Origin: Candidatus Saccharimonadales bacterium
Lineage (GTDB): Bacteria > Patescibacteriota > Saccharimonadia > Saccharimonadales > SZUA-47
Length of the DNA stretch: 64,000 nt
Assembly: GCA_038211855.1 (NCBI GenBank)
Contig: JBBQVE010000004.1
Coordinates: 867 to 64,866 of the forward strand
Direction: 5' to 3'
Under the pieces are notes generated by a model. It was given only the letters and a program-made list of their open reading frames with translations, had not been told where the DNA came from and ran no database searches. A program made the position numbers and the translations under genes. Position 1 is the stretch's first letter. Every line of letters begins with the position of its first letter. This document shows, in pieces, positions 1 through 60,832 of the stretch.

Positions 1-97
1 ATGACAACTCTACACCGCCCTCAGTCTTAGCAATATTTCTTGACATTGTTGTCTTACCTGATACCGGTGCGCCGCCAATCAATGTGATTTTTTGCAT
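1..97 (-). CDS. P-loop NTPase/kinase, N-terminal fragment (gene continues past left edge)
   Basis: Not in the ORF track because it is too short. The reverse complement from ATG 97..95 reads MQKITLIGGAPVSGKTTMSRNIAKTEGGVELS, with Walker A GAPVSGKT. The frame is open to the window edge. Confidence 0.55.
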   Translation of the reverse strand, partial: MQKITLIGGAPVSGKTTMSRNIAKTEGGVELS

Positions 98-125
98 AAC
101 TACATTCTAGCTTACATCTAAGAAC

Positions 126-167
126 TTAGTTGCAATAGCGTTACAGATGGCCCTCCAAGCATAAGCC
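126..167 (+). repeat. Cassette-array element copy 1
   Basis: TTAGTTGCAATAGCGTTACAGATGGCCCTCCAAGCATAAGCC. It shares the core AATAGCGTTAnnGnTGGCCCTCCAA with copies 2-7. The right arm is in the GCATAAGC form. Confidence 0.8.
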
Positions 168-171
168 CTAT

Positions 172-197
172 AAAAGACTTCGTGAGGAGTCTTTTTG
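172..197 (+). terminator. Hairpin with T-run (AAAAGACT / AGTCTTTTT)
   Basis: The stem is AAAAGACT (172-179) paired with AGTCTTTT (188-195), and a T-run follows. An A-run upstream makes it look bidirectional. No plus-strand gene lies upstream in the window, so it is an orphan. Confidence 0.5.
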
Positions 198-199
198 TT

Positions 200-208
200 T
201 GGTATGAT
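200..208 (+). promoter_or_regulatory. Extended -10 (TGGTATGAT), 6 nt before ATG 215
   Basis: TGn plus TATGAT, then AGTTGC, then ATG. No Shine-Dalgarno, so a leaderless layout. Confidence 0.5.
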
Positions 209-214
209 AGTTGC

Positions 215-739
215 ATGTCTCATCTTTTCATTGCTGCAATTACTGGACCAGCTGGGTCTGGCAAGACTTCGGTTTCGGCTAAACTCACCAAACAACTTCC
301 AAAATGCGTGAACATTGAAGCCGATCATGTAAAGCATTTTGTTCCGAGCGGCTTTTCTTATGACAAAGATACAGACGGTACAGAGCGTTGGAATTTCAAT
401 GAATGGGAATTGGTGGGGGAATGTATTGGGATGCTTGCAAATAAATTCCAAGAAAAGGGTTTCGGCGTTATTATAAATGGCTATATAGACGAACTGGGCT
501 GGCCAGCAATTGAAAAGCAAATCAAGATTACTCACAAATTCCTACTTTTGCCACATGTTGACGAAGCAAAGCTTCGGGACCTACAGCGTCCTAGGGACAA
601 AGCTATGGGTGAGAAAGCAATCCAAGAACACCATGACTATTTTTCAAGTAATGAATTCTATGATGATTTCATAAAAATTGATTCAACAAAACAAACTATT
701 GATGAAACCGTAAATAGCATCGCCAAGCTACTAGTTTAG
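215..739 (+). CDS. P-loop kinase (AAA_33 / small-molecule or nucleotide kinase-like)
   Basis: The ORF track gives 182..739. I moved the start to ATG 215 (MSHLFIAAITGPAGSGKTS) because 182-197 lies inside the terminator hairpin and a -10 box sits 6 nt upstream of 215. Walker A is GPAGSGKT. Confidence 0.7.
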   Translation: MSHLFIAAITGPAGSGKTSVSAKLTKQLPKCVNIEADHVKHFVPSGFSYDKDTDGTERWNFNEWELVGECIGMLANKFQEKGFGVIINGYIDELGWPAIEKQIKITHKFLLLPHVDEAKLRDLQRPRDKAMGEKAIQEHHDYFSSNEFYDDFIKIDSTKQTIDETVNSIAKLLV

Positions 740-775
740 TAGAAATAGCGTCACATCGATCCTCCAGCTAATATG
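735..775 (+). repeat. Cassette-array element copy 2 (most diverged)
   Basis: TTTAGTAGAAATAGCGTCACATCGATCCTCCAGCTAATATG. It overlaps the TAG stop of the upstream gene. Confidence 0.65.
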
Positions 776-823
776 TCTCGTCGTGAGATGAGTCTTTTTA
801 GTTAGAGCATACCTATATTGAGT

Positions 824-829
824 TACTAT
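824..829 (+). promoter_or_regulatory. -10 box TACTAT, 7 nt before ATG 837
   Basis: TACTAT-ATACCTT-ATG. No Shine-Dalgarno. Confidence 0.4.
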
Positions 830-836
830 ATACCTT

Positions 837-1229
837 ATGGCATCTGAAAGAATTTATGTTGCTTCAAGTTTTGAGCAACGCGATGAGGTGAGTGCTTTAC
901 ACAGATTACTCCGCAATGCAGGCCATACAATTACTGCCGACTGGACTACTCACAGAGAAATTACTTCCCTGGAATCTATAGTAGAGCGCGAGAAACTAAA
1001 ACAGCAGTATGCGATTGAAGATACTAATGGTGTGAAGACTGCTACTATCTATGTCTTGTTGCTCGGCAATCGTAAAAGTACCGGCGCTCACATTGAGTTG
1101 GGTGTTGCACTTGGATCGAACATAAATCGAGTTTGTATAATTGGCGAGCCTGATACATCACAACTGTTTTACAGTCATCCAGCCATTACTATTTATCCAA
1201 ACATTCGTACATTCCTTGATTCACTCTAA
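837..1229 (+). CDS. Nucleoside 2-deoxyribosyltransferase-like family protein
   Basis: 130 aa. The IYVASSF start and HIELGVALG (conserved Glu) resemble the NDT-like Rossmann-type fold. The call is by eye. Confidence 0.5.
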   Translation: MASERIYVASSFEQRDEVSALHRLLRNAGHTITADWTTHREITSLESIVEREKLKQQYAIEDTNGVKTATIYVLLLGNRKSTGAHIELGVALGSNINRVCIIGEPDTSQLFYSHPAITIYPNIRTFLDSL

Positions 1230-1230
1230 T

Positions 1231-1277
1231 TTCAGTTGAAATAGCGTTCACGGTGGCCCTCCAATACGCTTATGCTT
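1231..1277 (+). repeat. Cassette-array element copy 3
   Basis: TTCAGTTGAAATAGCGTTCACGGTGGCCCTCCAATACGCTTATGCTT. The arms ATAGCGT and ACGCTTAT can pair with one bulged T. Confidence 0.8.
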
Positions 1278-1278
1278 G

Positions 1279-1306
1279 AAACAGAGGTTACTTGTCTCTG
1301 TTTTTT
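1279..1306 (+). terminator. Rho-independent terminator
   Basis: AAACAGAG-gttacttgt-CTCTGTTTTTT. Confidence 0.7.
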
Positions 1307-1314
1307 GATATAAT
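1306..1314 (+). promoter_or_regulatory. Extended -10 (TGATATAAT), 6 nt before ATG 1321
   Basis: TGATATAAT-TTACCT-ATG. Confidence 0.55.
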
Positions 1315-1320
1315 TTACCT

Positions 1321-1740
1321 ATGAATGATGATAAATATTTCCTTCAAATGGCAACGGATGAAGGCAACAAAAAACCACTTCCATATAACTTTGGTGCCGT
1401 AATCGTTAAAGACGGCAAGGTCATTGTAAAAGACTTTAATCACGTTCACGAAACAAACGATCCTTCCGCACACGCGGAAGTTTCGGCTCTAAGAAAAGCT
1501 GCAACTTTACTCGGTAACTATAATCTTGATGGTGCGATACTGTACGGTAGTCACGAACCGTGTTTGATGTGTTTTAGTTGCGCTGCTTGGGCAAATATAG
1601 AAAGAGTGGTTTATGCGATACCGGCATCCGAACAGGATGATTTTAGCTACGAGTTTAAGGATGTTAGCCTTAAAGATTTAGCGTCTAAACTTGTTAGGCG
1701 ACCGATAAGTGTTGAGTTGATTCGTTTGACTGAAAGTTAA
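1321..1740 (+). CDS. Cytidine/deoxycytidylate-type zinc deaminase (nucleoside/nucleotide or tRNA-adenosine deaminase family)
   Basis: HAEVSAL and HEPCLMCFSC give the H-A-E / P-C-x-x-C zinc-deaminase signature. 139 aa. Confidence 0.85.
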   Translation: MNDDKYFLQMATDEGNKKPLPYNFGAVIVKDGKVIVKDFNHVHETNDPSAHAEVSALRKAATLLGNYNLDGAILYGSHEPCLMCFSCAAWANIERVVYAIPASEQDDFSYEFKDVSLKDLASKLVRRPISVELIRLTES

Positions 1741-1779
1741 TTGCGATAACGCTGCAGACGGCCCTACAAGCATAAGCGG
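1736..1779 (+). repeat. Cassette-array element copy 4
   Basis: GTTAATTGCGATAACGCTGCAGACGGCCCTACAAGCATAAGCGG. The right arm is in the GCATAAGCG form. It overlaps the stop codon. Confidence 0.7.
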
Positions 1780-1802
1780 TTTAATTTAAAAACTTTTATA
1801 TT

Positions 1803-1811
1803 TGTTATTAT
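1803..1811 (+). promoter_or_regulatory. Extended -10 (TGTTATTAT), 6 nt before ATG 1818
   Basis: TGTTATTAT-GGTCAT-ATG. Confidence 0.5.
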
Positions 1812-1817
1812 GGTCAT

Positions 1818-2276
1818 ATGAGTAAAGTATGCGAGATCTGCGAGTTTATTAAAAATCCCCAAAATCAGATAATAGAAACGAAACACTGGACTGTAGGTAT
1901 TGGTGATAATCACGCATATTTGGGTAGAGCTTATGTGACACTAAAATCACATAAGGAGAGTCTTGGTGAACTTAACGACGAAGAATGGAAAGAATATCAA
2001 CAGCTGGTTGTAAAACTAGAGAAGGCTTATAAACAAGCTTTTGGAGCATCGCCATTAAATTGGGGATGTTTTATGAACTTTGCTTTTCAATCAAAGCCGT
2101 ATAACCCACACGTACATTGGCATATTTATCCTCGATATGAGGTGGCTCCAACGGTAAGTGGCATAACTTTTGACGACCCACTTTATGGCAAATTCTATGA
2201 TAACAATGCAGAACGGATAGTAAGTGGCAGCGTAGTTAAAGAAATTGCTGATAAACTTAAAAACAACTTAGAGTAA
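1818..2276 (+). CDS. HIT (histidine triad) family nucleotide hydrolase/transferase
   Basis: NPHVHWHIYPRY contains the HxHxHxx triad. 152 aa. Confidence 0.85.
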   Translation: MSKVCEICEFIKNPQNQIIETKHWTVGIGDNHAYLGRAYVTLKSHKESLGELNDEEWKEYQQLVVKLEKAYKQAFGASPLNWGCFMNFAFQSKPYNPHVHWHIYPRYEVAPTVSGITFDDPLYGKFYDNNAERIVSGSVVKEIADKLKNNLE

Positions 2277-2316
2277 TCGCTGTCTTGACAATCAGTACTA
2301 CGGAGAACCAACAATG

Positions 2317-2359
2317 GACGCAATAGCGTTACGGATGGCCATCCAACACGCTTATGCTT
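2317..2359 (+). repeat. Cassette-array element copy 5 (best dyad symmetry)
   Basis: GACGCAATAGCGTTACGGATGGCCATCCAACACGCTTATGCTT. The centre GGATGGCCATCC is a perfect palindrome. The 19-nt arms match at 14 of 19 positions. Confidence 0.8.
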
Positions 2360-2387
2360 AAAACTCTTCTATTATGAGGAGTTTTTA
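2360..2387 (+). terminator. Rho-independent terminator
   Basis: AAAACTCTTC-tattat-GAGGAGTTTTT. Confidence 0.65.
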
Positions 2388-2389
2388 GG

Positions 2390-2398
2390 TGGTAGTAT
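2390..2398 (+). promoter_or_regulatory. Extended -10 (TGGTAGTAT), 6 nt before ATG 2405
   Basis: TGGTAGTAT-TAAAGA-ATG. Confidence 0.5.
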
Positions 2399-2404
2399 TA
2401 AAGA

Positions 2405-2917
2405 ATGTCTAATGATGAAGAACTTCTCTGTAAAACTGTAAATAGGAAAAGAGTGGTTTTTGACCCAGTAAACTCACATACGGCAACTCATTTTAGAGAC
2501 GCACCAGGATTACGAGTAGTGGCAATTGAAGCTCTAAGTAGTATGAAGCTAGATGATGAACTAATTGCTAAAGATATTGATATGGGTAGGACAATTGGGA
2601 ATACTGACGTAGTAGATGTCTATGACACGGATACGATAGTGTATGCCATACGTAGTATGCGGGAAGATCAAGGTTATGTGCCCTTTACCAAGTCTAAAGC
2701 TACGCAGCCAAGTTCGTTCATATCTGTTCACTTGCTTCGTAGAGATGATAATACATATGAACTGTCCAGCACATGGATTGGTGAGTTTGAAAGTCCGATG
2801 TTTCCTCAGATGGATAACGCAACTGCGGATAGCATTCCCTACTGGAGCACACATGCATTTGTTTGGGGAAGCCAGGAGATTGTACAAGGTTCAGAGTTGT
2901 CAGAGTGTCCATGGTAG
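2405..2917 (+). CDS. Hypothetical protein (170 aa)
   Basis: Long ORF with the leaderless promoter layout. I recognise no motif. The overlapping track ORFs in other frames are treated as shadows. Confidence 0.5.
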   Translation: MSNDEELLCKTVNRKRVVFDPVNSHTATHFRDAPGLRVVAIEALSSMKLDDELIAKDIDMGRTIGNTDVVDVYDTDTIVYAIRSMREDQGYVPFTKSKATQPSSFISVHLLRRDDNTYELSSTWIGEFESPMFPQMDNATADSIPYWSTHAFVWGSQEIVQGSELSECPW

Positions 2918-2926
2918 CTATTGTAC

Positions 2927-2969
2927 CTAGTTGTAATAGCGTTAACGGTGGCCCTCCAACACGTTTAAC
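2927..2969 (+). repeat. Cassette-array element copy 6
   Basis: CTAGTTGTAATAGCGTTAACGGTGGCCCTCCAACACGTTTAAC. Confidence 0.8.
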
Positions 2970-2970
2970 T

Positions 2971-2998
2971 AAAAACTCCTTAGCGTAGGGGAGTTTTT
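2971..2998 (+). terminator. Rho-independent terminator
   Basis: AAAAACTCC-ttagcgta-GGGGAGTTTTT. Confidence 0.7.
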
Positions 2999-3001
2999 GT
3001 T

Positions 3002-3010
3002 TGTTGTAGT
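3002..3010 (+). promoter_or_regulatory. Extended -10-like (TGTTGTAGT), 6 nt before ATG 3017
   Basis: TGTTGTAGT-TACACT-ATG. Confidence 0.4.
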
Positions 3011-3016
3011 TACACT

Positions 3017-3649
3017 ATGAAATCAGTGCCTTTTTATGCCAATCGTGAAGATAACCTGCACTGTATGCTAGCTGTTTACGGATCTATCTTTGATTATTTT
3101 TATAACGAAAAGTTGGGCTGGCCAGAACTAGAAAAGCTTACGAGCTTTAAGCCAGGAAAGGCTGCCTGGAGCCTTACGATTATTTCGTATCTAGCAGAAC
3201 GAGGGATGGATATACGAATGATAGAGCCGTTCGATTACGCCCGCTACTACAATACCGGTGAACCTTATCTGGATGAATTCTTTACACTAGTTGAAAAAAA
3301 CTGGCAGCTCAAACACGGTAATATTTTAGAGATAAGACCTCTCATCCCTGATTTTCTTGAAAAAGTAAAATACGAACTGAAACGACCGACGACAGAAGAC
3401 ATCGATAGTATGTTGGCCGAGGAGAGACTTGTATTCGTTACCCTTGATTCAAGAGCACTGAACGATAAACCAGGATATTTCTCGCACGCAGTATTAATCA
3501 TAGGAGATAACGGCGACAGCTATATAATTCATGACCCCGGCTTACCCCCACAACCCAACCGACGTGTGAGTAAGCAAAAACTATATGCCGCAATGGGCGG
3601 AGAAAAAACAACTAGTGAAGTGACTGGTTTTAAATTGAACAAAGACTAA
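3017..3649 (+). CDS. Papain-like cysteine peptidase (C39-like) candidate
   Basis: The N-terminal NLHCMLAV supplies a candidate Cys. The C-terminal FSHAVLIIG...IIHDPG supplies candidate His/Asp. The layout resembles C39-like or BtrH-like peptidases. The call is by eye. Confidence 0.45.
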   Translation: MKSVPFYANREDNLHCMLAVYGSIFDYFYNEKLGWPELEKLTSFKPGKAAWSLTIISYLAERGMDIRMIEPFDYARYYNTGEPYLDEFFTLVEKNWQLKHGNILEIRPLIPDFLEKVKYELKRPTTEDIDSMLAEERLVFVTLDSRALNDKPGYFSHAVLIIGDNGDSYIIHDPGLPPQPNRRVSKQKLYAAMGGEKTTSEVTGFKLNKD

Positions 3650-3696
3650 GTTTAGTGAAATAGCGTTAACTGTGGCACTCTAATAACCACAAGCAC
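3650..3696 (+). repeat. Cassette-array element copy 7 (terminal, right half diverged)
   Basis: GTTTAGTGAAATAGCGTTAACTGTGGCACTCTAATAACCACAAGCAC. Confidence 0.65.
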
Positions 3697-3728
3697 TATC
3701 ATTTTTAGTTAGGATCTATAAAACTTAT

Positions 3729-3923
3729 CTAGCTTGCTAACTTGCAACATATGTTTGACCGACTACCCGACTTGCAGTAAAGAATGATTTCACTAGCTTT
3801 CGGTATATTTTCTAGTTCACCTAACTCCCCCATCAGCTTGGAAGGGGGTATGTTAACAGCGCCATCGAGGTGGCCACTTGCTTATTCCTCAGGTTCTCGT
3901 ACATCTATAATTATTCTGGCCAT
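3729..3923 (-). pseudogene. Rhodanese-domain gene remnant (in-frame TAA, C-terminus missing)
   Basis: Not in the track. The minus strand reads MARIIIDVREPEE*ASGHLDGAVNIPPSKLMGELGELENIPKASEIILYCKSGSRSNICCKLAS*. DVRepeE..GH..GA.NIP and the active-site loop YCKSGSRS are rhodanese hallmarks. The TAA at 3882-3884 sits where an aromatic residue is usual. The final strand of about 25 aa is absent. Confidence 0.6.
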
Positions 3924-3941
3924 CTCATCGCTTTCGAAAAA

Positions 3942-4172
3942 TTAACGCAAATCTTTCTTTAACCGCTCAAATTCTGCTTTATCAATTTCGCCTTTTGCGT
4001 ATCGTTCTTTGACAATATCGACGGGGTCACCATGTTGTTTATTAATGTATTGTTGTCCTCGCAAAAAGTGCACAGCAGCAAGTACGACGAGCACTAGAAA
4101 TACAAACATGAATAACATCATTACAAAACCCCAAGCTCCACTATCTCCATTCATCATGCGGTAGTCATACAT
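3942..4172 (-). CDS. SHOCT-domain small membrane protein
   Basis: The C-terminal ERYAKGEIDKAEFERLKKDL is a SHOCT motif, and one TM helix is present. I chose the start at ATG 4172 (MYDYRMMNG) because GAGGAG lies 8 nt upstream. The track begins at TTG 4190. Confidence 0.7.
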   Translation of the reverse strand: MYDYRMMNGDSGAWGFVMMLFMFVFLVLVVLAAVHFLRGQQYINKQHGDPVDIVKERYAKGEIDKAEFERLKKDLR

Positions 4173-4502
4173 ATAACTAGCTCCTCTCAACGATTCTTTA
4201 AGTTCTCAGAACGCGTTACCTATCCTACCCTTAGTATACGCTTACGAAACAACTGCTGACGGAGGAATAGTAAACAACTTACTAGATACGGGACACCGAA
4301 TCCTTTAGCCTCAAGAGTGTCCTTGTCCACGATGAGGAAAATATACGGTGAACAAATTGAAACCCTCGAACATCTCCAAAAAGAGGGTGGCGCTCGAGTA
4401 CCTCACTGACCATTGCGAGTACAAGCAAGACAAGGCACCCAAAAAGCTACTACGGACAAACTAAGTCTTTTGAGCAGTGGCTTATGCTCAGTTGCTATTA
4501 TG

Positions 4503-32415: not shown

Positions 32416-32584
32416 ATGTAAACTCCTTAAGGGTAAGGTTGGTTTTTAGGTAGTAATGCAGGTCAATCTAAATCATATATTTACTATAGCACGCGCTGGG
32501 GCTTACGAAACTTTGCCAGCGGGTGAAGCTTAGTAGGCCCCAGCCGATTGCGCTATTGCTCAATATACCTTACGTGGTATACTA

Positions 32585-55791: not shown

Positions 55792-56220
55792 CTAGTCGTT
55801 GGCAGGGGCGGTCTGTTCGGTACGCTCGGCCAACTCTATCGTCCGAATTTGGTCCTTTAGGACGCCTGGCACGTTTCCGTTAACTATCTCCTGTTGCATC
55901 TCTACTAAGTCTTCGTGACAAAGTTTGTCATCTTCACCATGCATAACTTGCCCAGGATTTTTGTCGTCGTCGGTTCGGGCCAGTGATGCAATGTGTTGTT
56001 CATACCCAGTCGTCTGAAGCTCTACGAAACAAAACATCGGCTTAGCTCGCGTCTCCAGCACGCCGTCTTTTTTTACGCTGCCAGCACGCGCTGTAATCAC
56101 CTCACGCGCTTGCTGTGGGCCTACAATCAGCGCTGCATAAAGGACCTGGTCAATAATAGCGAGGTAGACATACTGTCGGTCTAAGTAAGTGAATATGTCC
56201 CCGTAGCCCATGAAAAGCAT
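55792..56220 (-). CDS. Candidate toxin partner of the Panacea-domain antitoxin (142 aa, no recognisable domain)
   Basis: The track ORF is 55792..56304. I set the start at ATG 56220 (MLFMGYGDIF), which lies 16 nt after the upstream stop and 7 nt after a TGCTAAAAT extended -10. Confidence 0.45.
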   Translation of the reverse strand: MLFMGYGDIFTYLDRQYVYLAIIDQVLYAALIVGPQQAREVITARAGSVKKDGVLETRAKPMFCFVELQTTGYEQHIASLARTDDDKNPGQVMHGEDDKLCHEDLVEMQQEIVNGNVPGVLKDQIRTIELAERTEQTAPAND

Positions 56221-56227
56221 GTCTACT

Positions 56228-56236
56228 ATTTTAGCA
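56228..56236 (-). promoter_or_regulatory. Extended -10 (TGCTAAAAT), 7 nt before ATG 56220
   Basis: The minus strand reads TGCTAAAAT-AGTAGAC-ATG. Confidence 0.4.
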
Positions 56237-56773
56237 CTAGAGGATAGAGAGTGCCAACTTGATTTCGTCTTCCGATACTTTGGCACGCTTATCGTGCGCT
56301 GCAAGGTAGTACGGGATTTGCTCGTTCAGTTTGGTTTCTGACCAAGGGGCTTCCGAATGAGAAGCAGCCTCTATATCTTCAGTGGTAGTCCTTTTAAACT
56401 GTGATGCGACTTGTTCCAGCACCTTCAACTCTGTTTCGCTGAATAACTTCGCGTCGTCGTCGGTAAACCCTCTTGCTGGCAAAAACCTGCACATCTTTGT
56501 GCCTTTAGGATGTTCGCAGCTAACTGTACCTTCAAACACTTGACCTGTGGACTTTGACTCAAAGGTGTCTGCCCAGTCTTTAATCGTTGTAGGTATTGGA
56601 CCGTGTTCTAGATTGTAGTACGTGTCGTAGGTAACGGGGATGCCGTATTCCCTTGTGTGGGTAAAATCAAGATTGTAGAAAAGCTTCATCAGCTTTACTT
56701 TTCCGAGGTACTTCGTATCAGTATAGTTTGCGAAATATGCGAGTATCGCTTCTATCTTCCTCTGATTAGTCAT
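56237..56773 (-). CDS. Panacea (DUF4065 / SocA-like) domain antitoxin candidate
   Basis: KVKLMKLFYNLDFTHTREYGIPVTYDTYYNLEHGPIPTTI matches the DUF4065 core pattern (K.qKLlY..d......g.p......y.a...GPv). 178 aa. Confidence 0.6.
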   Translation of the reverse strand: MTNQRKIEAILAYFANYTDTKYLGKVKLMKLFYNLDFTHTREYGIPVTYDTYYNLEHGPIPTTIKDWADTFESKSTGQVFEGTVSCEHPKGTKMCRFLPARGFTDDDAKLFSETELKVLEQVASQFKRTTTEDIEAASHSEAPWSETKLNEQIPYYLAAHDKRAKVSEDEIKLALSIL

Positions 56774-57061
56774 TTCAACCTCTTCTTGCTATTGTTTCAT
56801 TTTTATTATATACGATTCCCCTGCTCACTGCAACCCACTCCATGCTCTTACCATAAGCATAACATAAGCGCAATAATCAAGTAATTTCTTATATTATTAA
56901 CTCTTTAAATTGTGCTGTTGAAACTTTTATTGTCCAAATAACTAATACTGCAGGTAGGTAAATGTTTACGCCTAATTAGAAATGAGATGGCTCGCAGGGG
57001 GTAGAGTCTGGAAAAGCTGTATCGAGAGTATTTACACTACAGTTTAGAGGTTAGAGGTACA

Positions 57062-57286
57062 CTATGCTGATTGTGAAGCATTAAGCTGATCACGGAACCA
57101 CTCCCATTGCTTGAAGCGTTCTTCCGCAATTATGTCATTCCAAGTACCGCCACAATACTGAGTCGTGTCCAATATAGCAACCTTAATAATATTCACTGCT
57201 TCCGTCTCTATTCGCTCGTACTCTTTTTCGCCATCTTTTGGCATAAACATTTCGCGTAAACTAAGTTCAAATTCTTCTTGTGTCAT
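57062..57286 (-). CDS. Hypothetical protein (74 aa)
   Basis: Acidic ORF in an AT-rich segment of the element. Confidence 0.35.
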   Translation of the reverse strand: MTQEEFELSLREMFMPKDGEKEYERIETEAVNIIKVAILDTTQYCGGTWNDIIAEERFKQWEWFRDQLNASQSA

Positions 57287-57482
57287 ACGTCTATATTAAC
57301 TCATTAAGCACGCTACGTCGTACAATGTATCTTGTACGCAAGAGATTAACAGAGGTGGGCGTCTATTATTTAGTTAAAAAAGGCTTGTCAAGTGGAACGC
57401 TATTCCGTGTTCACCCCTGTTAAATTAATTATTATGCTACATTCTATTATTTATGGTCTGGTAATTTTTAAGATTCCTGTAC

Positions 57483-58187
57483 TTATAGATTGAAAGCATC
57501 ATTGTTTAATTTATTATTATCAATCTTAATTGTATTTGCTAATTCAATAGACTGTTTTTGCTGTTCATTCAACGTATCTTGATCTTTAGCTAACTGAGAT
57601 TTATCAGTATTAAGTTTAGTTTTAGCAGTCGTAACATATGAATAGTCACATATCCCAATATTGCATCCGTTATTTGCAAGTCCTGACTGTATCGTAATCT
57701 GCGAATTATCATTACTGATTGCATTCATATCAGTCTGGATTTGAAAACTCATATCACTTACTGACTTACCTAGGGCATAAAAATTCAGTGAATCATTTAG
57801 GGCTGTAGCAAGATCAGAGTTTAAGGTAATTAAAGTTGGTTGGTTATACGTCGTTCCATTTACGGACGACTGAATAGTTTGTACCTGCGAAGCAATGTCG
57901 TCGTAATAAGTATCCCATTCATCTTTAGTTTTTGTGGTAGTTGAAGGTAATGTTGAGGCCTTTTGGTTAAGTGCGAGGTACTGTTTATAGTTAGTTTCAA
58001 GGCTTGATTTCTCTTTTGCTAATGCCGCGACCTGCTTATTGTGTTGAGCATGACTATTAAAAGAAGTCAGAGCAATGGTTAATGCCACAGCTGCCACCCC
58101 TACGACTATCCAGAAAATATACCTCAAGCGTTGGTTAGCGTCTCTATGTTGTTTAATGTCGTCGTGTAACCACATTCCGTCACTCAT
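57483..58187 (-). CDS. Membrane-anchored coiled-coil protein
   Basis: The TM helix is IFWIVVGVAAVALTIALT, followed by a long region rich in Q, N and K. GGAGA Shine-Dalgarno lies 7 nt upstream. Confidence 0.5.
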   Translation of the reverse strand: MSDGMWLHDDIKQHRDANQRLRYIFWIVVGVAAVALTIALTSFNSHAQHNKQVAALAKEKSSLETNYKQYLALNQKASTLPSTTTKTKDEWDTYYDDIASQVQTIQSSVNGTTYNQPTLITLNSDLATALNDSLNFYALGKSVSDMSFQIQTDMNAISNDNSQITIQSGLANNGCNIGICDYSYVTTAKTKLNTDKSQLAKDQDTLNEQQKQSIELANTIKIDNNKLNNDAFNL

Positions 58188-58274
58188 ATAATTGTCTCCA
58201 TAATAAAAAAGGCACCCGTACTTAGGTGTCTTACGCCACAGTAGGGTTTAGCCTACTGGTTTTGTACGGATGCC
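58188..58274 (-). promoter_or_regulatory. Structured 5' leader with terminator/antiterminator alternative
   Basis: On the minus-strand RNA the terminator is GACACC-uaaguacg-GGUGCC followed by U6, just before the Shine-Dalgarno. The upstream GGCAUCCGUAC (58274-58264) can instead pair with GUACGGGUGCC. An inner hairpin forms from CAGUAGG and CCUACUG. Confidence 0.35.
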
Positions 58275-58452
58275 ATTTTATTGGCTAAACCGTACACAGT
58301 TCGTGCAAGTAAATACTACTGTAGCGTAAGACTTTCTAAGCATACCTCTATCATATGACTTGAACAAGGAGTGCTATAGTAAATATAGGCAACTTAGCCA
58401 GAAGCTTTGTTGCCTTTTGTTTATAAATACTGCGAGAATACTGTGAGAATTT

Positions 58453-58773
58453 ATGGCTAATGAGCAGAATCTAAAACCGTTCCGCAATGGCTATGACGTA
58501 CGTCGTGGAAGTAAGCCTAAAGGCTCTAGGCATGTGTCTAGCTACATTAAAGAATTTCTAGAAGGTGTAGAGATTAAGTACACGCTAATGGGAACTGAAG
58601 TAGAAGGCACGCCCATAGAAGCTATCATTAAAGGTACGATAATCAAAGCAATACAAGGGGACCTAAAGGCATCTGAAATGCTTTTTAAATATGGTTATGG
58701 TCCAAGTGATCATACACTCCTAGAGGAGCAGAAGAAGCTTATTATCATACATCGGAGATATAAATCAAACTAA
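58453..58773 (+). CDS. DUF5681-like phage/plasmid-type protein
   Basis: NLKPFRNGYDVRRGSKPKGSRH resembles the N-terminal motif (nlkPfkkG.sgnp.GrPkGs) seen in phage-associated proteins. The call is by eye. Confidence 0.45.
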   Translation: MANEQNLKPFRNGYDVRRGSKPKGSRHVSSYIKEFLEGVEIKYTLMGTEVEGTPIEAIIKGTIIKAIQGDLKASEMLFKYGYGPSDHTLLEEQKKLIIIHRRYKSN

Positions 58774-58818
58774 ACTTTAGCTTTTTCGATAAATAGTGTA
58801 TAATTGCATTAAATAGGC

Positions 58819-58846
58819 AAATAGCCCTTAACGGAGGGCTATTTTT
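58819..58846 (+). terminator. Rho-independent terminator
   Basis: AAATAGCCCT-taacgg-AGGGCTATTTTT. Confidence 0.65.
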
Positions 58847-58993
58847 ATGCCTACAAAACTTCCAGAGAACGACAAATCGGCCAACAACCACACCAGATCA
58901 GCATTTTTACTAAAAGAAATTGCTATCCTTCCCCAAACTGGCCCTGTTGATTACTATGTTTTAGATAAGTATGGCAACAAAGTGACGTTGTAA
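58847..58993 (+). CDS. Small ORF (48 aa)
   Basis: Not in the track. It reads MPTKLPENDKSANNHTRSAFLLKEIAILPQTGPVDYYVLDKYGNKVTL. It lies directly upstream of the recombinase, so it is a possible excision/directionality factor. That role is speculative. Confidence 0.25.
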   Translation: MPTKLPENDKSANNHTRSAFLLKEIAILPQTGPVDYYVLDKYGNKVTL

Positions 58994-59037
58994 TTTGTTA
59001 GCTAATAACTACACGAACTCCTGTATAGCATATACTT

Positions 59038-60693
59038 ATGCTAATGGACGGAGAGAAGACCACGCAAGAACTACTTGCGATGCTGAGGGGAACATTTGCC
59101 AGTGGAGATTCGCGAGATATTGATATTAAGAGCGTGGTTTATGCTATATACGCACGTAAATCAACGAAGGGCGAGGAACGACAAGAGCGTAGTATTTCAG
59201 ACCAAATAAGTGATTGTGTTAAGCGCGAAGTTGAGCCAAACGGTCTACAAGTCAGTAAGGTAATCGAGGAGAAAGGTAGCGCGAAAGAACCAGACATAAG
59301 ACCAAAGTTTCGTGAGATGCTCAACGATATAAAAGCGGGTCGATACAGCGGTATTATCGCCTGGCACCCAGACCGACTCGCGCGGAACATGAAAGAAGCT
59401 GGTGAAATCATCGACCTCATAGATAAAGGCGTTATTAAGAGCCTCCGATTTGCTACGTTCAGTTTTGAAAACAGCCCTATGGGAAAGATGCTATTAGGTA
59501 TTTCATTCGTCATGTCTAAGCAATACTCCGAGCACTTGAGTGAGAGTGTATCGCGGGGCAATCGCAGGAAGACTGAGGACGGCGTATTCTTCGACGAACA
59601 GAAACATGGCTATTATATTTCCGACGGCCGCCTATTTCCTGACGGCAACAACTTCGTACTCATAAAACAAGCTTTCCAGAAGCGACTCGAAGATTGGTCA
59701 CAGCCAGATATTGTAGAGTGGCTCAACAAGCAGGGATACACTCTTAGAAGAAAAAATAAAGACCCTGTAAGTTTCAAGTGGGATAAGGATACTGTTAGCA
59801 AATTGCTACGAGACCCTGTATACGCAGGCGTGCTTAAGTACGGCAAGAGCTTCTCAGACCTAACACAATACTATGATTTTGAGTCTGCAGTAAGTGTCGA
59901 TGACTTCTTGAAGATTAATAAGATTAAAGATATACACGACCCAAGTCTAGTTTCATCGATGATGCTGAAACGACGTGGTGCGCCAAAAGCCGACCTATTG
60001 CGTGGGGTTGTGCTCTGTGGCTATTGTGACCACGCATTCTCATCAGGCATTACGGTCAAAAAAGATAAATTTACAGGTAAGATAATTTCTAGTCGCTACT
60101 TCTATCGTTGCGAGACAGAGAGTTGCTCCTTTAGAAATAAAAGTGTCAGAGCGAAGATAGTACTAGACTATGCGGTTAAATTCCTTTCGGAGCACTTATT
60201 TACTACTGAAAGTAACTATGTGTCTTACGCGGCCGAGGCTCGTGAGTACGCCAACACGCAGGCTAAGTCACTCGATAGCGACATTGCTAGTTTTGCACGG
60301 CAAGTAGGCAATAAGGAGGCTGAATATGAGCGTACAAAGGCCACAGTGCGAGATAACCCAAAACTTGCCAAACACTATAACCTAGATGAAGTGGAGAGCG
60401 AGCTAGTGATCATCAGAAAAGACCATGCAAAACTCGTAAACACACGGAAGCAACTAGGCTCCGCAATTATTACATACAAGCAATATCTCGAACTTTTTGA
60501 AAACATAGGTGTTATATTGCCAAAAACACACGATATGCAGGTATTAGATGAACTGCTAAGAAAGTTCTTCTCGAACTTCACAGTTAAACTTACGGGTGTA
60601 GGCAAAAAACAGAGGTCAGAAGTTACCCATAAATTAAACGAACCCTGGAATGGGTTCGTAGAATCGAATGAATTCGTGATTGGTCGGGGATAA
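59038..60693 (+). CDS. Large serine recombinase (integrase)
   Basis: The resolvase catalytic domain has YARKSTKGEERQERSISDQ and HPDRLARN. A recombinase domain, a zinc ribbon (CGYCDHAF...YYRCETESC) and a coiled coil follow. The start is probably ATG 59044, which is 7 nt after TATACT. The last 13 nt overlap the tRNA-Pro 3' end on the other strand. Confidence 0.85.
   Translation: MLMDGEKTTQELLAMLRGTFASGDSRDIDIKSVVYAIYARKSTKGEERQERSISDQISDCVKREVEPNGLQVSKVIEEKGSAKEPDIRPKFREMLNDIKAGRYSGIIAWHPDRLARNMKEAGEIIDLIDKGVIKSLRFATFSFENSPMGKMLLGISFVMSKQYSEHLSESVSRGNRRKTEDGVFFDEQKHGYYISDGRLFPDGNNFVLIKQAFQKRLEDWSQPDIVEWLNKQGYTLRRKNKDPVSFKWDKDTVSKLLRDPVYAGVLKYGKSFSDLTQYYDFESAVSVDDFLKINKIKDIHDPSLVSSMMLKRRGAPKADLLRGVVLCGYCDHAFSSGITVKKDKFTGKIISSRYFYRCETESCSFRNKSVRAKIVLDYAVKFLSEHLFTTESNYVSYAAEAREYANTQAKSLDSDIASFARQVGNKEAEYERTKATVRDNPKLAKHYNLDEVESELVIIRKDHAKLVNTRKQLGSAIITYKQYLELFENIGVILPKTHDMQVLDELLRKFFSNFTVKLTGVGKKQRSEVTHKLNEPWNGFVESNEFVIGRG
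60679..60686 (+). repeat. Right copy of 8-bp direct repeat ATTGGTCG (candidate att core)
   Basis: It lies inside the recombinase stop region and the tRNA-Pro 3' end. Confidence 0.55.
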
Positions 60694-60757
60694 AGGACTC
60701 GAACCTTCGACCTCGCGGTCCCAAACCGCGCGCGCTAGCCAACTGCGCCAATCCCCG
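60681..60757 (-). tRNA. tRNA-Pro (anticodon TGG)
   Basis: On the minus strand: acceptor CGGGGAT/ATCCCCG, anticodon arm CGCGG-TTTGGGA-CCGCG, T arm GAAGG-TTCGAGT-CCTTT. CCA is encoded. Confidence 0.85.
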
Positions 60758-60832
60758 TTATGTGCTCCATAAGTGGAGCGCAGACTAGATAGAGATTATA
60801 GCTGAGAAGGGTTAAATAAGCAATTATTTGCA

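Follow-up and report, generated by a model that had tools for sequence, protein, structure and literature searches.

The left end of the window, as the whole 64-kb stretch of DNA analyzed here is called, carries six genes on one strand that alternate with seven copies of a short element (Table 1). The copies are located where the first-pass annotation had placed them, and none is expected by chance; the core pattern AATAGCGTTNNNGNTGGCCCTCCAA, allowing up to three mismatches, has five matches in the window and 0.00 in shuffled sequences. An HMM built from the seven copies and scanned across the 64 kb returns only those seven, with the next best match at E>0.5, in agreement with the earlier remark that no clear copy is present elsewhere; the weak candidate proposed near 32530 (E=8.6) is noise. 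The array had been taken to start at position 98, but an eighth copy is present immediately left of the window (locus L004, 1-900) and is followed by a P-loop gene on the reverse strand, so that copy 1 does not stand behind a same-strand gene. The G+C content of the array is 0.40 compared with 0.43-0.52 in most of the remaining window, and is equally low only at 56-60 kb. Beyond copy 7 lie genes with higher G+C on the other strand. The best explanation of the window is that it holds the distal six cassettes of an array of the tRNA-Lys type described below; the longer record of the array stops 776 nt left of the window and shows neither a tRNA-Lys of this genome nor the left end of the array.

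Table 1. Features of the cassette array at the left end of the window
Feature	Position	Strand	Remarks
P-loop kinase gene, 5' part (187 aa in full)	1..97	-	Pfam AAA_33; cassette gene on the opposite strand, between the eighth element and copy 1; full gene on L004 1-900
Element copy 1	123..157	+	35-nt left arm and core; TGGCCCTCCA at 148-157; followed by class B flank GCATAAGC; 33.6 bits
Cassette 1 5' module	158..214	+	Class B flank; terminator hairpin 172-195 and T run; extended -10 TGgTATGAT 200-208; 6 nt to ATG 215
Cassette gene 1, P-loop kinase	215..739	+	Weak matches to AAA_33, AAA_18, Zeta_toxin
Element copy 2	733..766	+	Degenerate, 1-nt deletion; GTAGA.ATAGC left-arm subfamily; holds gene 1 stop codon; 18.2 bits
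Cassette gene 2, nucleoside 2-deoxyribosyltransferase-like	837..1229	+	
Element copy 3	1229..1263	+	30.5 bits
Cassette 3 5' module, class A	1264..1320	+	ATACGC, TTATGCTTGAAA; hairpin 1282-1300 and T run; TGaTATAAT 1306-1314; 6 nt to ATG 1321
Cassette gene 3, cytidine/deoxycytidylate deaminase	1321..1740	+	E=1.9e-22
Element copy 4	1734..1768	+	Diverged (ATTGCGATAACGC...GGCCCTACA); holds gene 3 stop codon; followed by class B flank; 21.2 bits
Cassette gene 4, HIT family	1818..2276	+	
Element copy 5	2311..2345	+	Core GGCCATCCA; the one copy that forms a real dyad, together with its class A flank
Cassette gene 5, no Pfam family	2405..2917	+	Cassette homologues in L091 and L075
Element copy 6	2924..2958	+	31.3 bits
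Cassette gene 6, no Pfam family	3017..3649	+	
Element copy 7, last	3648..3682	+	Degenerate, core GGCACTCTA; distal end of the array; 23.8 bits

The conserved unit is an asymmetric sequence of 35 nt, A.TTTAGTTGCRATAGCGTCTACGRTGGCCCTCCA, that begins 6 nt ahead of GTTGC, ends with the A of CCTCCA, and can be written in two parts as A.TTTAGTTGCRATAGCGTCTACGR-TGGCCCTCCA, the last 10 nt being TGGCCCTCCA. The information content drops from 1.9 to 0.5 bits at the base that follows. In 121 copies that the search pattern had not selected, taken from samples of soil, lake, peat, and sludge, conservation runs from -6 to +28, is strong over the 24 nt left of the core, and collapses at +29, the position of the tRNA end. 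The first-pass annotation had described an imperfect palindrome of ∼40 nt, but the element is neither such a palindrome nor a hairpin. Copy 5, rightly called a near-dyad, does fold better than shuffles when both strands are considered (z -1.5/-2.3), but it alone does so, and the left and right arms display no covariation across 62 class A junctions; the element is conserved as sequence and not as structure. The two reverse-complementary forms of the right arm are confirmed: copies 1 and 4 carry GCATAAGC, whereas GCTTATGC is present in copies 3 and 5. The right arm is nevertheless not part of the element: the sequence right of the core falls into at least four flank classes, is not conserved between them, and travels with the downstream cassette.

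Each cassette opens with a short flank that varies, followed by a terminator and an extended -10 promoter; mostly one leaderless ORF comes next, and the 35-nt site forms the 3' end. A module nearly identical to that of cassette 3 precedes an unrelated gene in L002. In the window, a terminator-like hairpin is called for gaps 1, 2, and 6, the hairpins reported in gaps 3 and 5 are visible by eye, and the -10 box reported 6-7 nt before each ATG is present for the genes at 215, 837, 1321, 1818, and 2405 and doubtful for the gene at 3017. The proposal that every cassette has its own promoter extends to 117 cassettes elsewhere, of which 57 have a -10-like hexamer exactly 6 nt before the start and only seven an SD-like motif; TG is present ahead of the -10-like hexamer in 67/98. 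The cassette genes are of the accessory type, including small kinases, NUDIX, HIT, HAD, GNAT, APH, ANT, and PIN proteins, and 52 of 297 are located on the opposite strand, including the gene left of copy 1.

The position of the element, usually 0-40 nt 3' of a same-strand stop codon with a terminator next, and its tRNA-like NCCA end are features expected of a repeat that acts at the RNA level or accompanies terminators (REP-like, a 3'-UTR stabilizer, or a tRNA-like processing end) and lies behind accessory genes by chance. Such a role, also raised in the first-pass annotation, is very improbable because the element lies outside the 3' UTR of the 52 opposite-strand genes. In addition, six of the seven window copies fold no better than shuffles on either strand, the putative stem halves do not covary, an Rfam search matches no family, and no 5' acceptor strand for a tRNA-like helix is evident by eye beside the element. 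The element is also not dispersed behind core genes; its copies cluster at one place both in the 64 kb and in long related loci, and none is present in L118-L120.

Related loci were retrieved with a pattern derived from the element, yielding 267 copies in 112 metagenome and MAG loci, a count that is therefore uninformative on how many Saccharibacteria lack the element; the three named loci are Saccharibacteria. All 157 pairs of neighboring copies agree in orientation, and their median spacing is 742 nt. The 196 complete cassettes form 172 sequence clusters, and 133 of the 196 contain one gene. The same cassettes recur beside different neighbors and at different ranks, and arrays share cassettes in altered order. 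Gene 5 of the window has homologues with 63% and 56% identity that are cassettes in other arrays (L091:505-1014 and L075:2680-3183). The earlier proposal of a cassette-like array with its boundaries in the element is borne out by this massive turnover of cassettes at the element across related loci. Two observations named at that time as contrary to the proposal, a motif scattered over the genome and a gene order conserved in all relatives, are not what was found: the long related loci, like the 64 kb, do not have the motif scattered through them, and the cassettes between its copies are exchanged.

Copies can be compared in pairs to locate the exchange. Pairs that are alike on the upstream side only number 43, and those alike on the downstream side only number 15; polymorphisms bound the junctions to +19..+29 of the element, i.e. 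TGGCCCTCCA. No circular cassette or empty site was observed, and it is the comparison of loci that suggests the cassettes are mobile. Junctions within a conserved repeat would likewise be left by homologous recombination alone, in which DNA is taken up by Saccharibacteria and the 35-nt repeats with their flanks serve as short homology for RecA-dependent gene swaps that involve no site-specific enzyme. Arrays that lack a linked recombinase agree with this explanation, as does a ComEC competence gene that adjoins one array. Homologous exchange is nonetheless decidedly unlikely, as it leaves unexplained the strict single orientation and the retention of a non-coding 35-mer across lineages in which the flanking genes have only ∼60-68% protein identity. 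It also does not account for a repeat that ends at the exact CCA of tRNA-Lys or for arrays that start at tRNA-Lys, with only 10 nt common to both.

The last 10 nt of the element (TGGCCCTCCA) match the tRNA-Lys 3' end base for base, comprising the acceptor strand, the discriminator base, and CCA, and conservation of the element ends exactly at the CCA. The loci contain 45 tRNA genes, 38 of them tRNA-Lys; 36 of these 38 lack an element upstream and have one or more downstream, without exception on the same strand. Where 2.6 kb or more of upstream DNA is available, a same-strand tRNA-Lys lies upstream in 14 of 18 loci, and three of the other four have a tRNA-Lys remnant or tRNA-like end. The upstream neighbors of arrays are tRNA-Lys, FolD, and Mur ligase. 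The tRNA ends in ...CTGGCCCTCCA and is directly followed by the same flank classes that follow the elements. In this the arrays agree with tandem accretion at tRNA genes, where every unit lies between direct repeats of the tRNA 3' end and the intact tRNA stands at one end.

Elements that target tRNA genes are well known. Integration at the 3' end rebuilds the tRNA and leaves a direct repeat of the tRNA end on the far side, and repeated integration at a tRNA generates tandem units, as in the accretion of ICEs and CIMEs in streptococci and in tandem islands at tRNA loci; CIME-like units that lack an integrase can be moved in trans. The arrays described here resemble these elements in the tRNA 3'-end target that would be rebuilt, the far-side direct repeat, the tandem units, and the lack of an integrase in units that may be moved in trans. 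They differ in that the units are ∼0.3-1.6 kb with one gene rather than islands of several kb, in that the identity is limited to 10 nt and is joined by a further 25 conserved, cassette-specific nt, and in that arrays reach at least nine units in the recovered stretches. Also, no autonomous integrase-bearing element was found, and no integrase was found beside an att site in the cassettes examined. The units could be viewed as fossils: larger integrative elements, whether prophages, ICEs, or plasmids, would have entered at tRNA-Lys one after another, each with its own integrase, and shrunk to one or two genes, leaving the repeats as attR-type scars and the units immobile. Tandem tRNA integration is expected to leave a P-arm and core distally in each unit, two of the window copies (2 and 7) are decaying, and a unit of 6.6 kb in L055 harbors a replication-relaxation protein, a sortase, and an IS1595 transposase. 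Scars would drift, however, whereas the unselected copies strongly conserve the 24 nt to the left of the core. Exactly one gene in 133 of 196 units, the stereotyped terminator-promoter-leaderless layout, and identical units with varying neighbors and ranks also disagree with decay. No integrase or phage remnant is present within the cassettes examined, and no viral contigs with the site were found. Fossil att sites are thus an unlikely explanation.

Since the 10-nt end of the element equals the tRNA-Lys end and the arrays start at tRNA-Lys, the formal resemblance to cassette arrays that had been pointed out earlier becomes a concrete integration model. The element is probably a cassette recombination site in Saccharibacteria that plays the role of attC, with cassettes integrating site-specifically at the 3' end of tRNA-Lys. 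A cassette would be inserted via site-specific recombination within the 10-nt identity, the partner being either the 3' end of the tRNA-Lys gene, which would be attI-like, or the site of another cassette. Insertion would restore the tRNA, and cassettes would pile up head to tail behind tRNA-Lys in a single orientation. A dedicated recombinase would be supplied by a gene at another place in the genome or by a helper element.

No recombinase gene was found in or beside any array in 614 kb of related loci, and neither an intI-like gene nor a tyrosine recombinase is located in or beside the arrays in the 112 loci. The only Phage_integrase found, in L097, is 5 kb from its elements, and the large serine recombinase of the window is 55 kb from the array, beside tRNA-Pro. 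One lead to the type of enzyme is the geometry of the class A junctions (90 unique; the commonest flank class), ..GGCCCTCCA followed by 6-7 nt and then TTATGCTTAAA: the 11-nt arm, 6-7-nt spacer, and TTATGCTTAAA would suit a tyrosine (Xer-like) recombinase. The TTATG arm is absent from flank classes B, C, and D, and because of this variability right of the core a simple two-armed core site cannot fit all cassettes. The Xer/dif site consists of 28 bp, with two 11-bp arms around a 6-bp spacer and a TTATG-type XerD arm; the order of 11 nt, 6-7 nt, and TTATGCTTAAA in the class A junctions may be a likeness to dif, one that classes B-D do not share. Xer-dependent elements include IMEX at dif and the pdif modules on Acinetobacter plasmids, the latter flanked by inversely oriented sites (C/D, D/C). 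As in both, the recombinase is unlinked and small modules lie between short conserved sites, and IMEX also form tandem arrays of one orientation. Unlike these elements, the arrays are anchored at a tRNA gene and not at dif, and in contrast with pdif all sites are direct repeats.

The likeness to integrons and CALIN is broader. It comprises head-to-tail arrays of small, highly diverse, mostly single-gene cassettes, one site per cassette at the 3' end with the stop codon often within it, nearly the whole site moving with the upstream gene, entry that is fixed to one array end, and cargo such as GNAT and APH/ANT-like enzymes and toxin modules. These parallels, particularly the same-orientation arrays of promiscuous cassettes and the stop codons extending into the repeat, could indicate a classical integron or CALIN array whose attC sites are unusually short. 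That identity is extremely improbable. The R''(RYYYAAC)...R'(GTTRRRY) pair is present in 0/257 junction regions and 0/7 window gaps on either strand (shuffles, mean 1.85), the L'' and L' boxes are absent as well, and the site is conserved as sequence instead of a folded, covarying hairpin. Integrons enter cassettes at attI beside intI and rely on Pc for expression, whereas here the entry is the 3' end of tRNA-Lys, no integrase is linked, and each cassette has a terminator, promoter, and leaderless ORF. REPs are palindromic, dispersed over the genome in both orientations, and associated with RAYT transposases. The element shares with REP/BIME sequences only that it is a short intergenic repeat after genes, and differs in its single cluster, one orientation, lack of a stable hairpin, and lack of an association with RAYT. 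The earlier view that the element matches none of these systems canonically holds: it is no canonical form of attC, REP, or pdif, given no hairpin, covariation, or R''/R' boxes, no dispersal beyond a single cluster in the 64 kb or the long loci, and direct in place of inverted sites.

The element marks the borders of mostly single-gene cassettes behind tRNA-Lys and is probably part of an integron-like gene-shuffling system with no recombinase gene beside it; no published description of the system was found. A tentative but real possibility is that Saccharibacteria, and perhaps other Patescibacteria, have their own capture platform, evolved separately from integrons, in which an unlinked recombinase uses the invariant 3' end of tRNA-Lys for docking and a sequence-specific 35-nt site tags the cassettes. 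If so, docking at tRNA-Lys together with a tag on each cassette would make self-expressing single-gene cassettes exchangeable throughout the lineage.

Six open reading frames at the left end of the window share one strand, and a common sequence is present in all the gaps between them, as the first-pass annotation had described. The motif AATAGCGTTNNNGNTGGCCCTCCAA, allowing up to three mismatches, has five matches in the window and 0.00 in shuffled sequences (n = 100). When the 64 kb are searched with a profile of the seven copies, these seven are detected and no other; the next match has an E-value of 0.55, and a further copy suggested near 32530 is dismissed with an E-value of 8.6. The G+C content of the array is 0.40 versus 0.43-0.52 for most of the other DNA in the window, where the 56-60 kb stretch alone is equally low. 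Pfam families were found for four of the six array genes (P-loop kinase, nucleoside deoxyribosyltransferase-like, cytidine deaminase, and HIT) and for neither of the other two. A public 7.3-kb Logan contig that matches the left end of the window exactly reaches 776 nt further left and carries an eighth copy, which contains the stop codon of a 57-aa ORF, and a reverse-oriented P-loop gene between this copy and copy 1. The array therefore continues past the window edge, and copy 1 has no same-strand gene before it. Tracing the locus in relatives through the adjoining oxidoreductase, whose homologs are labeled Saccharibacteria or Saccharimonadales, yielded three loci of 7-21 kb (L118-L120) in which the array is absent; hence, the distal flank is not conserved.

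The extent of the element was defined by conservation among 121 distinct copies that had not been picked by the search pattern. Counted from the G of GTTGC, the conserved stretch occupies positions -6 to +28, with the consensus A.TTTAGTTGCgATAGCgTCTACGaTGGCCCTCCA; position +28 still carries 1.9 bits of information, position +29 carries 0.5, and the positions beyond carry about 0.2. The 'right arm', previously taken as part of the element, thus falls outside the conserved unit and belongs to one of several classes of flank (see the table). The 10-mer GCTTATGCTT of class A and its exact reverse complement AAGCATAAGC of class B, which overlaps the last AA after the core (the last 10 nt of the element), both directly follow the core, so that one short motif serves in either orientation. 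The class C flank extends ∼95 nt after the core and comprises AAGATACCTAAACAGATACC, a variable inner hairpin with the left-arm-like GTTCCAATAGCAGTAC, and GTATCTGTTATTTAGTTCTAGTC; a promoter and unrelated genes come next. The base of the class C stem is kept while its interior varies, and the flank has no match in Rfam. Class D is a bidirectional terminator followed, on the opposite strand, by a sequence resembling the 3' third of a tRNA, such as GGGTGTCCGCGGATCAAGTCCCAACTAGCTTCTGCCA, that neither ARAGORN nor Rfam calls a tRNA. Within the same arrays, a second subfamily of left arm occurs alongside the main GTTGCGATAGCGTCTAC form.

Coordinates of the array, its flanks, and other features (window positions unless a related locus, L001-L120, is named)
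Feature	Location	Description
Array ORFs	215-739, 837-1229, 1321-1740, 1818-2276, 2405-2917, 3017-3649	window 1-4200, one common strand
-10 box before start codon	215, 837, 1321, 1818, 2405	present
-10 box before start codon	3017	doubtful
Terminator hairpins	172-195, 777-792, 2970-2999	called
Terminator hairpins	1282-1300, 2362-2386	by eye
Second left-arm subfamily	733-766 (copy 2); L055:824, 7444, 8251, 10586	GTAGATATAGCAATCAC.GTGGCCCTCCA
Flank class A	copies 3, 5 (copy 6 a variant); other flanks also occur in the window	CCA, 6-7 nt (ATACGC), TTATGCTTAAA, hairpin; 90 distinct cases
Class A 10-mer	e.g. 1264-1275	GCTTATGCTT
Flank class B	copies 1, 4	CCAAGCATAAGCAtTATgAAAGAC; includes reverse complement of class A 10-mer
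Class B 10-mer	156-165	AAGCATAAGC
Flank class C	L003:6440-6565, L001:2200-2312, L065:6337-6450, L074:2870-2980, L060:7880-7992, L085:10750-10860, about 10 more	long hairpin AACAGATAC...GTATCTGTTATTTAGTTCTAGTC
Flank class D	L020:73-200, 653-780, 1462-1600; L113/L114 directly after tRNA-Lys; L089, L100, L022, L054, L039	terminator, stem takes in CCAA of the core
In-array tRNA-Lys(CTT)	L065:5294-5370, L070:1377-1452	acceptor pair changed to T7-A66
6.6-kb unit	L055:824-7444	
Phage_integrase	L097:1061-2041	
Island	L097:1061-5151	integrase and restriction-modification pair
Serine recombinase	59038-60693	551 aa; Resolvase, Recombinase, Zn_ribbon_recom
tRNA-Pro	60681-60757	minus strand
Serine recombinase context	55800-60800	G+C 0.40-0.42

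A hairpin or an attC-like folded site was considered for the element. Copy 5 alone beats shuffled sequences when both strands are folded as single-stranded DNA (z -1.5 and -2.3), and six of the seven copies do not. In 62 class A junctions, ten putative stem pairs occur at the frequency obtained after partners are shuffled; for example, A11 stands opposite C32 in 17 cases and T32 in two. The R''...R' boxes of integrons were found in 0 of 257 junction regions. This reading is rejected on the comparison with shuffles, the stem-pair test, and the box search. A search of the window and 15 related loci with Rfam detected tRNAs alone. The element was also considered as coding sequence, since it can be read as VAIASTMALQ.. 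in a plus frame and WRAIVDAIAT in a minus frame with wobble-like variation. The periodicity is only partial, and the coding reading is rejected because the element is out of frame with the upstream genes and lies past their stop codons.

The strict form of the pattern identified three loci in a genome collection, all in MAGs of 'Candidatus Saccharibacteria', and a looser form identified 112 metagenome contig stretches from soil, lakes, peat, sludge, and mats; these loci were gathered by means of the element itself, and their counts reflect that selection. Two scans of viral contigs gave no match to the element. A profile search of the related loci detected 267 copies with a median spacing of 742 nt, and neighboring copies agree in orientation in all 157 pairs within a locus, with 0 disagreeing. 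The ORFs between copies lie mostly on the strand of the element (212, with 44 on the other), and the first bases of the element often coincide with the stop codon of the gene before it (TAG|TTGC in 37 cases and ATAG in 12). Dispersal outside arrays was judged on the 64-kb window, the long loci, and the three 7-21-kb loci from relatives.

The arrays are anchored at tRNA-Lys genes. ARAGORN detected 45 tRNA genes in the related loci, 38 of which are tRNA-Lys (29 CTT and 9 TTT), and for 36 of these 38 genes, one or more elements lie downstream and none upstream, in every case on the strand of the tRNA. The gene ends in ...CC-TGGCCCTCCA, so that the last 10 nt of the element read as the 3' end of tRNA-Lys, consisting of the acceptor 3' strand, the discriminator base, and CCA. 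The 25 nt of the element that precede the core are unrelated to the tRNA T arm. Directly 3' of tRNA-Lys comes a flank of class A, B, or D, as after the elements, and then a promoter and a gene. Eighteen loci extend at least 2.6 kb upstream of their first element, and 14 of these include the tRNA; of the exceptions, L047 begins at a 25-nt 3' fragment of tRNA-Lys, L102 begins at a tRNA-like end, L002 shows TGGCCCTCCA where its stretch is cut off, and L097 is the sole one without a trace of tRNA-Lys. The upstream neighbors of tRNA-Lys(CTT) are housekeeping genes, FolD and Mur ligase. No GGCCCTCCA occurs in the window outside the array, and the tRNA-Lys end of the window array lies beyond view, as the visible DNA stops 776 nt left of the window. 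Two loci, L065 and L070, harbor extra tRNA-Lys(CTT) genes within their arrays, in which the changed acceptor pair makes the 3' ends read GATGGCCCTCCA, like the element; these may be tRNA-carrying cassettes or a clue to the origin of the site.

Comparison of all pairs of copies revealed 43 pairs that are at least 90% identical upstream but not downstream and 15 with the reverse pattern. The upstream-sharing pairs first diverge at +29 to +31, and the downstream-sharing pairs differ in polymorphisms within the element up to +19, which places the junctions within (R)TGGCCCTCCA. When the arrays were cut at +28, 196 complete cassettes resulted (median length, 732 nt), and 133 of them contain one ORF; the 196 form 172 clusters at 80% identity, including 153 singletons. 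Common cassettes recur with differing neighbors, as in the cluster orders tRNA>3-4-105-106-11 (L114), tRNA>3-128-5-6-7 (L113), 47-5-6-7 (L094), ..-11-2 (L020), and tRNA>2-142-8 (L044), and gene 5 of the window has cassette homologs in L091 and L075 with 63% and 56% identity. The encoded proteins are of accessory type, with histidine phosphatases, AadA-like enzymes, AAA_18/AAA_33 kinases, and NUDIX, HIT, HAD, GNAT, APH, PIN, and PadR proteins. Taken together, the sequence comparisons suggest that the cassettes are mobile.

A junction at the core assigns the terminator and promoter between an element and the next gene to the downstream cassette, so that every cassette carries its own insulation and promoter. 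A set of 117 non-redundant cassettes was examined, each with its first same-strand ORF beginning 25-250 nt past the core; their start codons lie a median of 58 nt from the core. In 57 of them a -10-like hexamer has its end exactly 6 nt ahead of the start codon, in 10 the distance is 7 nt, and in six it is 8 nt; TG precedes the hexamer in 67 of 98, and Shine-Dalgarno (SD)-like motifs occur in 7 of the 117. The -10 boxes proposed 6-7 nt before the ATG of all six window genes hold for five, and the terminator hairpins proposed in the gaps are in part called and in part visible by eye. The remainder of the window (4300-64000) has 57 ORFs of at least 100 aa, of which only 10 show an SD-like motif and 14 a -10-like hexamer placed 6-7 nt ahead of the start codon; leaderless expression may be widespread in this genome and no peculiarity of the cassettes.

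The simplest account of the arrays is site-specific recombination inside the 10-nt identity, in which a cassette site recombines with the 3' end of tRNA-Lys or with the site of another cassette. It would explain the tRNA-Lys anchor, the intact tRNA, the single orientation, the conservation ending exactly at CCA, and the reshuffling. The layout of class A, with 11 nt ending in CCA, a 6-7-nt spacer, and TTATGCTTAAA, has the look of a tyrosine-recombinase core site and stays a lead because the other flank classes do not have the same layout. Across the 614 kb of related loci, no array was found to contain or adjoin a tyrosine or serine recombinase gene. A linked recombinase was detected neither by phmmer with XerD and gamma-delta resolvase queries (approximate sequences), nor by Pfam on 45 large or flanking proteins, nor by six-frame phmmer with the window serine recombinase and the L097 integrase, and a Pfam overview of 150 cassette proteins contained no recombinase. 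The sole tyrosine recombinase in the 614 kb, the L097 Phage_integrase, lies 5.4 kb upstream of two elements that are followed by a ComEC gene; it adjoins an MvaI/BcnI-type restriction-modification pair in an island, and the locus has no tRNA-Lys.

The window itself encodes a large serine recombinase, which could be considered as the cassette enzyme. Its stop codon is inside the 3' end of tRNA-Pro, it is adjoined by SocA/Panacea antitoxin-like and DUF5681 genes, and the region is probably a separate integrated element at tRNA-Pro. A role in the arrays is not favored, as the gene is 55 kb from the array and a search for another copy of the tRNA-Pro end gave none. A large serine integrase without a directionality factor is ill-suited to recombining two internal sites of identical type. 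One unit in L055, 6.6 kb in length, contains a replication-relaxation family protein, a sortase, a Kelch-like protein, and an IS1595 transposase, and no integrase was found in it. It looks like a plasmid-like element between two sites and fits an enzyme acting in trans, like that of Xer-dependent elements.

The arrays are functionally similar to integron and CALIN cassette arrays and topologically similar to the tandem accretion of integrase-less elements at a tRNA gene. The element lacks the R''/R' boxes and conserved hairpin of attC, the palindromic units dispersed in both orientations of REP, and the inverted site pairs of pdif, and tRNA-targeting islands encode their own integrase, whereas none was found in the cassettes. 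The full-text literature covered, with subscription journals outside it, contained no account of arrays like these, whether from Saccharibacteria or from other CPR bacteria, and identification of the recombinase could show them to be a new class. With genomes of about 1 Mb, Saccharibacteria are ultra-small episymbionts, and the acquisition and trading of accessory genes by such small genomes is poorly understood. The cassette pool is very diverse (172 clusters from 196 cassettes), with nucleotide-housecleaning enzymes, small kinases, toxin modules, and relatives of antibiotic-modifying enzymes (GNAT, APH, and ANT). The 35-nt site can be used as a probe or PCR handle to harvest cassettes from metagenomes, and the recombinase with its 10-nt tRNA target could provide a tool for a group that is hard to manipulate genetically. 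If the proposed account is true, the anchoring of a cassette array at a universally conserved tRNA end would give the lineage a portable platform for sharing genes. This platform would represent a second, independent answer to the problem solved by integrons, with a different logic: recognition of the site by its sequence instead of by a folded hairpin, entry at a tRNA gene, and a terminator, promoter, and leaderless ORF supplied by each cassette.
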